Positions 42,592 to 42,618 of a stretch of DNA of 64,000 nucleotides are shown here, piece by piece. This DNA is from Escherichia coli (GTDB lineage: Bacteria > Pseudomonadota > Gammaproteobacteria > Enterobacterales > Enterobacteriaceae). The translations under genes and the position numbers were made by a program. The stretch lies in assembly GCF_003334305.1 (NCBI RefSeq), contig NZ_QOWS01000002.1; one strand, 5' to 3'. The notes beneath the pieces are model-generated. The model worked only from the letters and a program-made list of their open reading frames with translations. It was not told the DNA's origin and made no database searches. Position 1 is the first letter of the stretch. Every line of letters starts with the position of its first letter.

Positions 42592-42618
42592 ATGTGGACT
42601 GAACTACAGTCCACATCA
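42592..42618. terminator. perfect 11-bp-stem hairpin between convergent ynbD and azoR
   Basis: GATGTGGACTG-aacta-CAGTCCACATC; no flanking U-tract. Confidence 0.4.

Follow-up and report, generated by a model that had tools for sequence, protein, structure and literature searches.

Dar and Sorek (NAR 2018, PMC6061677) described a class of Rho-dependent transcripts whose ends lie directly past stable stem-loops without a U-rich tail. In this class C exceeds G downstream of the structure, the rut sites lie just beyond it, and PNPase and RNase II shorten the transcript tails as far as the stem (PMC6061677). Some of the U-poor hairpins may be inefficient intrinsic terminators with Rho as a backup (PMC6061677). 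Another type of gene end is the bidirectional intrinsic terminator, a single hairpin for two convergent genes that can fold on both transcripts and whose hallmark is an A-tract upstream and a T-tract downstream, which provide each transcript with a U-tract. In a collision model built on canonical terminators of this type, the hairpin is a pause signal that positions head-on collisions (bioRxiv 10.1101/2022.10.23.513370). The hairpin located between ynbD and azoR in Escherichia coli is an ordinary member of the class of Dar and Sorek, and this instance is already contained in the published genome-wide tables of 3' ends and bicyclomycin effects. It adds one more case to the rule that Rho-ended E. 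coli mRNAs carry a U-less stem-loop which defines and protects their 3' end, and has little importance alone. The only mildly new point is that an intrinsic terminator and a Rho-type hairpin alternate within the species at the same gene end: among complete E. coli genomes, azoR is followed by a canonical intrinsic terminator in 12% (as it is in Citrobacter) versus a U-less hairpin in 88%. The alternation provides a natural matched pair in which the two modes of termination can be compared for mRNA stability and antisense read-through.

The window, the whole stretch of 64,000 nucleotides that was analysed, carries ynbD at 41289–42581 on the plus strand (stop codon TAA at 42579–42581), as placed by the list of open reading frames and by the RefSeq annotation of identical or near-identical genomes, and azoR at 42632–43237 on the minus strand (stop codon at 42632–42634). 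The segment 42480–42740 matches strains such as SE11 and E2865 at 100% identity, and in these RefSeq annotates ynbD and azoR at this place. The inverted repeat GATGTGGACTG-aacta-CAGTCCACATC is perfect over 11 bp and covers positions 42591–42617, with the left arm at 42591–42601, the 5-nt loop AACTA at 42602–42606 and the right arm at 42607–42617; the arms are 100% complementary. Its flanks are GTGGATTGA and AAGATCGTG. A perfect 11-bp hairpin between the convergent ynbD and azoR had been reported in the preliminary description of this DNA, and both the hairpin and the gene names were borne out, the latter by the RefSeq annotation. Its coordinates had been given as 42592–42618, one base too high, so that the gaps are 9 nt past the ynbD stop and 14 nt ahead of the azoR stop codon instead of 10 and 13. 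Two minor observations concern the surroundings. The start of ynbD differs among RefSeq annotations, with a CDS of 1293 or 1317 nt, and the open frame reaches farther upstream, as far as a GTG at 41190. Among the 5,419 matches to the ynbD–azoR junction (42480–42740), five were on records labelled as plasmids, an unexpected result for a locus of the chromosome that mis-assignment or integrated segments may explain.

The predicted energy of the hairpin was −17.4 kcal/mol on the plus strand and −17.9 kcal/mol on the minus strand, and the fold of a 76-nt context compared with shuffles gave z-scores of −4.3 and −3.1, respectively. First-order Markov simulations of the window yielded 0.21 perfect stems of at least 11 bp (loop of 3–10 nt) per 64 kb, and the presence of such a stem within a convergent spacer of 50 nt is therefore not a matter of chance. 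No second copy was present in the 64-kb window with up to 3 mismatches allowed. The stem itself, with 11 bp and 6 G-C pairs, resembles that of an intrinsic terminator (G+C-rich, 5–12 bp, short loop). The 12 nt past the stem are AAGATCGTGTCC on the plus strand and TCAATCCACTTA on the minus strand, with 3 and 4 T, and neither constitutes a U-tract, as had been noticed from the beginning. A consensus terminator scan requiring five or more T among the 8 nt past the stem made no call at the hairpin on either strand, and the same scan did call the azoR terminators in the E. coli locus L006 and the Citrobacter locus L014. The A-tract upstream and the T-tract downstream that mark bidirectional terminators were also absent.

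The information on transcript ends comes entirely from K-12, which has an 8-nt loop, and not from the strain of the window. In K-12 MG1655, ynbD ends at 1482201, azoR occupies 1482255–1482860 on the minus strand, and the hairpin, at 1482211–1482240, has identical arms around the loop AATATCTA. In the TRS study (Nat Commun 2023, PMC10687069), a 3' terminus of azoR classed as ‘Primary’ is placed at 1482204 on the minus strand (1482205 in one row), which is 7 nt beyond the base of the stem at 1482211. This terminus appears in Supplementary Data 2–4, with the intervals 1482201–1482212, 1482203–1482211 and 1482204–1482211, and in one row the hairpin is printed as the structure preceding the azoR terminus (PMC10687069). 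Transferred to the window, this predicts that the azoR mRNA at steady state would end at 42584 on the minus strand. In the second dataset (Adams et al., eLife 2021, PMC7815308, Supplementary file 2), a Rho region antisense to ynbD peaks at 1482190 on the minus strand, 21 nt beyond the stem, with a Rho score of 4.93 (p = 3.3e-5). Coverage at this region went from 43 to 15 without bicyclomycin and from 25 to 43 with bicyclomycin (PMC7815308). The Rho score was obtained at low coverage and in 800-nt windows, and could partly reflect antisense transcripts induced by bicyclomycin and starting inside ynbD. The curated Term-seq tables of the same study contain no 3' end at the hairpin (14822xx) (PMC7815308). 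The TERMITe supplements gave no match at the azoR/ynbD hairpin locus, and a full-text literature search for azoR together with ynbD returned nothing relevant.

The composition of the RNA past the stem points in the same direction on the azoR side. Over the first 40 nt on the azoR strand, C amounts to 33% and G to 7%, a C/G ratio of 4.3, and the ratio is still about 2 over 200 nt. This C-rich, G-poor tract, at 42551–42590 on the minus strand, resembles a rut site and contains position 42570, which corresponds to the Rho score peak at K-12 position 1482190. On the plus strand the ynbD transcript showed no C>G bias downstream, with a C/G ratio of about 1. No 3' end or Rho region was listed for ynbD on the plus strand in the tables of the two studies (PMC10687069, PMC7815308), and ynbD may be poorly expressed.

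We consider it probable that azoR has a Rho-dependent terminator, at which the hairpin forms the 3'-terminal stem-loop of the mRNA. The azoR end shares with the class of Dar and Sorek a stable stem with an energy like that of intrinsic terminators, a tail that is not U-rich, a 3' end a few nucleotides downstream in K-12, an excess of C over G beyond the structure, and a read-through that is sensitive to bicyclomycin in K-12. It differs in that the repeat is a perfect palindrome common to two convergent genes, with data on the azoR side only. We propose that RNA polymerase would leave azoR, transcribe the hairpin and enter the antisense strand of ynbD. The antisense ynbD RNA, being untranslated, C-rich and G-poor, would allow Rho to load, and transcription would halt at scattered points. 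The 3'-to-5' exonucleases PNPase and RNase II would then trim the tail until they are blocked by the stem of −18 kcal/mol, and the outcome would be a defined and stabilised azoR 3' end about 7 nt beyond the stem. As the repeat is perfect, the ynbD transcript would form an identical stem and could be capped likewise. We infer the exonuclease trimming and the stabilisation of the azoR mRNA from the match of its features to those of the class, in which the hairpin reads as a protective 3' cap, and we likewise infer any role of the hairpin for ynbD. The preliminary description had offered three readings, a bidirectional terminator that needs nothing but the hairpin, an RNase-protective 3' structure, or a protein site. 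The second is the one favoured for azoR by the K-12 3' end 7 nt past the stem, the Rho region and the C-rich, G-poor downstream RNA. The complete lack of 3' ends at the hairpin, which had been named as counter-evidence, was not what was found for azoR.

On the plus strand, a possible extension of the hairpin was visible in the minimum free energy fold of the ynbD RNA. This putative helix, at 42578–42635, would be imperfect, would contain G-U pairs and would enclose both stop codons, with a minimum free energy of −26.9 kcal/mol; it would form in the ynbD RNA only. In the consensus fold of ten haplotypes the outer pairs mostly survived, through one-sided transitions and never through a compensatory change. 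The search pattern had fixed most of the outer columns of that alignment, and two convergent TAA stops will always let TAA pair with TTA, and for these reasons we regard the case for the extended helix as weak.

The main alternative is a Rho-independent action of the hairpin, which would then be a bidirectional intrinsic terminator, U-less (‘I-shaped’) or weak, and would perhaps work by a pause leading to collision and release. This we hold to be unlikely, with a real chance of being correct, since a terminator of this kind would also leave a 7-nt tail. That distance is the usual one for intrinsic termination, so the position of the 3' end is compatible with termination at the hairpin itself as well as with trimming. 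The location of the element exactly between two convergent genes would also suit such a function, as would the collision model (bioRxiv 10.1101/2022.10.23.513370) and the inefficient U-poor terminators backed by Rho of Dar and Sorek (PMC6061677). The similarity to bidirectional terminators, however, stops at the single hairpin foldable on both transcripts: there is no flanking A- or T-tract, and the documented 3' end belongs to a single strand, none being recorded on the plus strand in the tables searched. Since the tails are not U-rich and no A-tract lies upstream, the consensus scan is silent, and the collision model was developed on canonical terminators. Bicyclomycin increases the read-through in K-12, and the Rho dependence that this indicates on the azoR side argues against termination by the hairpin alone. 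The first reading of the preliminary description, a bidirectional terminator made of the hairpin alone, was thus not supported in the form given, by the Rho dependence on the azoR side and by the lack of a ynbD plus-strand end in the two searchable datasets.

The distribution of the hairpin was examined at several scales. It was present in 4,766 of the 5,426 complete E. coli genomes, a count that includes both the ynbD-hairpin-azoR and the pdxI-[ynbD remnant]-hairpin-azoR forms. In 12 genome loci taken down the similarity ranking, the arms were identical wherever the hairpin occurred. Metagenome contigs were scanned with the pattern AACAGGTAAG N{30,50} GTGTCCGGTTAT, in which the outer flanks were fixed and the hairpin was free. 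The scan gave 89 genuine matches distributed in nine spacer haplotypes, with 22 of the 22 stem bases invariant and two loop forms; the spacers flanking the hairpin varied on both sides. Altogether the 22 bases of the stem were unchanged in about 100 E. coli-type sequences, both arms being invariant in every sampled sequence, and the loop was of 5 or 8 nt, the 8-nt form AATATCTA occurring in K-12 and many other lineages. One contig, L146, shares no more than 95% identity with even the closest complete E. coli genome and differs at 25 of 240 azoR positions; both of its hairpin arms are intact.

The segregating sites were counted in 74 sequences with 240-nt flanks, corresponding to 42 haplotypes. 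No position of the stem was variable (0/22), as compared to 8 of the 14 spacer positions, 130 of the 486 coding positions and, among third-codon positions, 61 of 162 (38%). The difference was significant by Fisher's test both between stem and third-codon positions (p = 1.3e-4) and between stem and spacer (p = 1e-4). These alignments show that the hairpin stem is under selection. There was no covariation in the stem among the approximately 100 sequences or in the ten-haplotype fold. The stem never varies, and for this reason its conservation is compatible both with RNA pairing and with a DNA-level or sequence-specific role.

The origin of the hairpin was approached through a scan of 100,044 species genomes based on YnbD, which recovered 80 loci, of which 31 were inspected. 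No homologue of the hairpin was found outside Escherichia, a different sequence following ynbD in all 31 inspected loci. The nearest ynbD orthologues found were those of Citrobacter, with 64–67% amino-acid identity, and there at least one further co-directional ORF lies past ynbD. Local alignment of the E. coli spacer with four Citrobacter ynbD–azoR intervals gave matches at chance level and no source for the hairpin. In Citrobacter sp. MGH106 (L014:3757–4505), and also in L015–L017, a 133-aa ORF overlaps the end of ynbD and the ynb cluster continues. The four Citrobacter loci show a further conserved stretch before azoR, possibly a second small ORF, and a similar conserved motif past ynbD was observed in many other Enterobacterales. 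The E. coli ynbABCD operon, which is without the Citrobacter-type sequences past ynbD, thus appears truncated at its 3' end.

In Citrobacter, the convergent azoR ends in a canonical terminator, CCCTCTCACC-GTCC-GGTGGGAGGG-TTTTT. A visibly related terminator, GCCTCCCAC-GAAA-GTGGGAGGT-TTTTTTA, follows azoR in the 643 of the 5,426 E. coli genomes that are without ydbD-ynbABCD and in which pdxI adjoins azoR; the type-C terminator sequence is GCCTCCCACGAAAGTGGGAGGTTTTTTTA. Given its presence in both Citrobacter and these 643 genomes, the intrinsic azoR terminator is ancestral. The canonical terminator occupies the same site as the hairpin, just past the azoR stop, has an equal stem energy (−17.9 kcal/mol) and presumably serves, like the hairpin, to end and cap the azoR mRNA. 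The terminator has a GC-rich stem of 8–10 bp followed by TTTTTTT or TTTTT, whereas the hairpin of the window has an 11-bp stem of mixed composition, no U-tract, and no sequence similarity to it. The comparison of these loci indicates that the U-less hairpin replaced the ancestral terminator in the lineage that lost the sequence downstream of ynbD. A third arrangement consists of pdxI, a remnant of about 60 nt of ynbD, the hairpin and azoR, and shows that the hairpin was retained upon deletion of ynbABCD.

The 3' flank of azoR is thus polymorphic in E. coli, as can be seen at positions 42582–42631 of the window and at L006:2961–3000, L005:1501–1613 and L013:1440–1540. A rare deletion, in strain 2012C-4227, extends from ynbB to the 3' edge of the hairpin.

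It is conceivable that the palindrome has no function and is a scar, left when a rearrangement took away the ancestral terminator together with the ORFs past ynbD. Intrastrand template switching between the arms would then keep them perfect by erasing mutations that affect a single arm. The absence of a hairpin homologue in Citrobacter and at more distant ynbD loci would fit such an origin, as would the L013 deletion, whose end-points adjoin the hairpin. It would also fit a change in a metagenome contig (OICB01000947.1, L107:3562–3625), where three clustered nucleotides turn the 5' spacer ATTGA into ATCTT, which pairs with AAGAT on the opposite side. The stem is thereby extended to 16 perfect bp and −25.5 kcal/mol, a signature of template switching at quasi-palindromes. 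Template switching should, however, introduce mutations into both arms as frequently as it erases them and so give paired changes, and there were none in about 100 sequences. Moreover, the hairpin coincides with a mapped mRNA 3' end, and it survived the loss of ynbABCD in the L005, L012 and L146 types. We therefore give the scar little credence.

A further idea, which we rate slightly below the scar, is that the stem is kept as a sequence and has a sequence-specific role in addition to the blocking of exonucleases, either through the recognition of a double-stranded RNA stem coupling the fates of the ynbD and azoR mRNAs, or through self-maintenance by template switching. There is some room for it because not a single change, even compensatory, was present in about 100 sequences that include a lineage at least 5% diverged, with the neighbouring sites all varying, and because in most of the species the hairpin took over from an intrinsic terminator that was functional. 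If the coupling were true, and mediated by an RNA-binding protein or an RNase, the 3' ends of the ynbD and azoR mRNAs would overlap by about 40 nt.

The least plausible reading, to which we attach hardly any weight, is a site acting at the DNA level, such as a cruciform or an operator whose inverted repeat binds a dimeric protein: the arms are conserved as sequence and not just as pairing, as such a site would have it, but their spacing differs by 3 bp (5 or 8), so that the half-sites would be turned by about 100 degrees with respect to a fixed spacing, the element is single-copy in E. coli and is situated between the two stop codons, where promoter-like sites are absent from the surroundings, and no binding data were found. 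A loop length of 5 or 8 nt between unchanged arms is easier to reconcile with a hairpin than with a protein element made of two half-sites, and the protein site put forward in the preliminary description is accordingly disfavoured.

Several known families were also considered. The search with 4,227 Rfam covariance models, at E-values up to 10, gave no match at the hairpin. A REP/BIME repeat was rejected: REP/BIME elements are likewise extragenic palindromes at gene 3' ends and can stabilise the upstream mRNA, but the azoR hairpin is single-copy, with a median of one place per genome in 4,769 genomes, is unique in the window and has no repeat annotation in NC_000913.3. We also take it to be unlike the REP consensus. 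A resemblance to an IHF site or to an integron attC site was rejected by eye, the consensus positions presumably being a misfit to the hairpin.

In this strain a GATC (Dam) site is present at 42620–42623, 2 nt past the right hairpin arm. K-12 has lost it, with GACC instead, as has the AAAATA spacer haplotype, and the site is therefore not conserved. Elsewhere in the window, positions 18957–18997 contain a 16-bp perfect inverted repeat, TAACTAATTGGCGTTG / CAACGCCAATTAGTTA, with a 9-nt spacer and AT-rich ends. This repeat is longer than the azoR hairpin and is the strongest perfect palindrome of the window.
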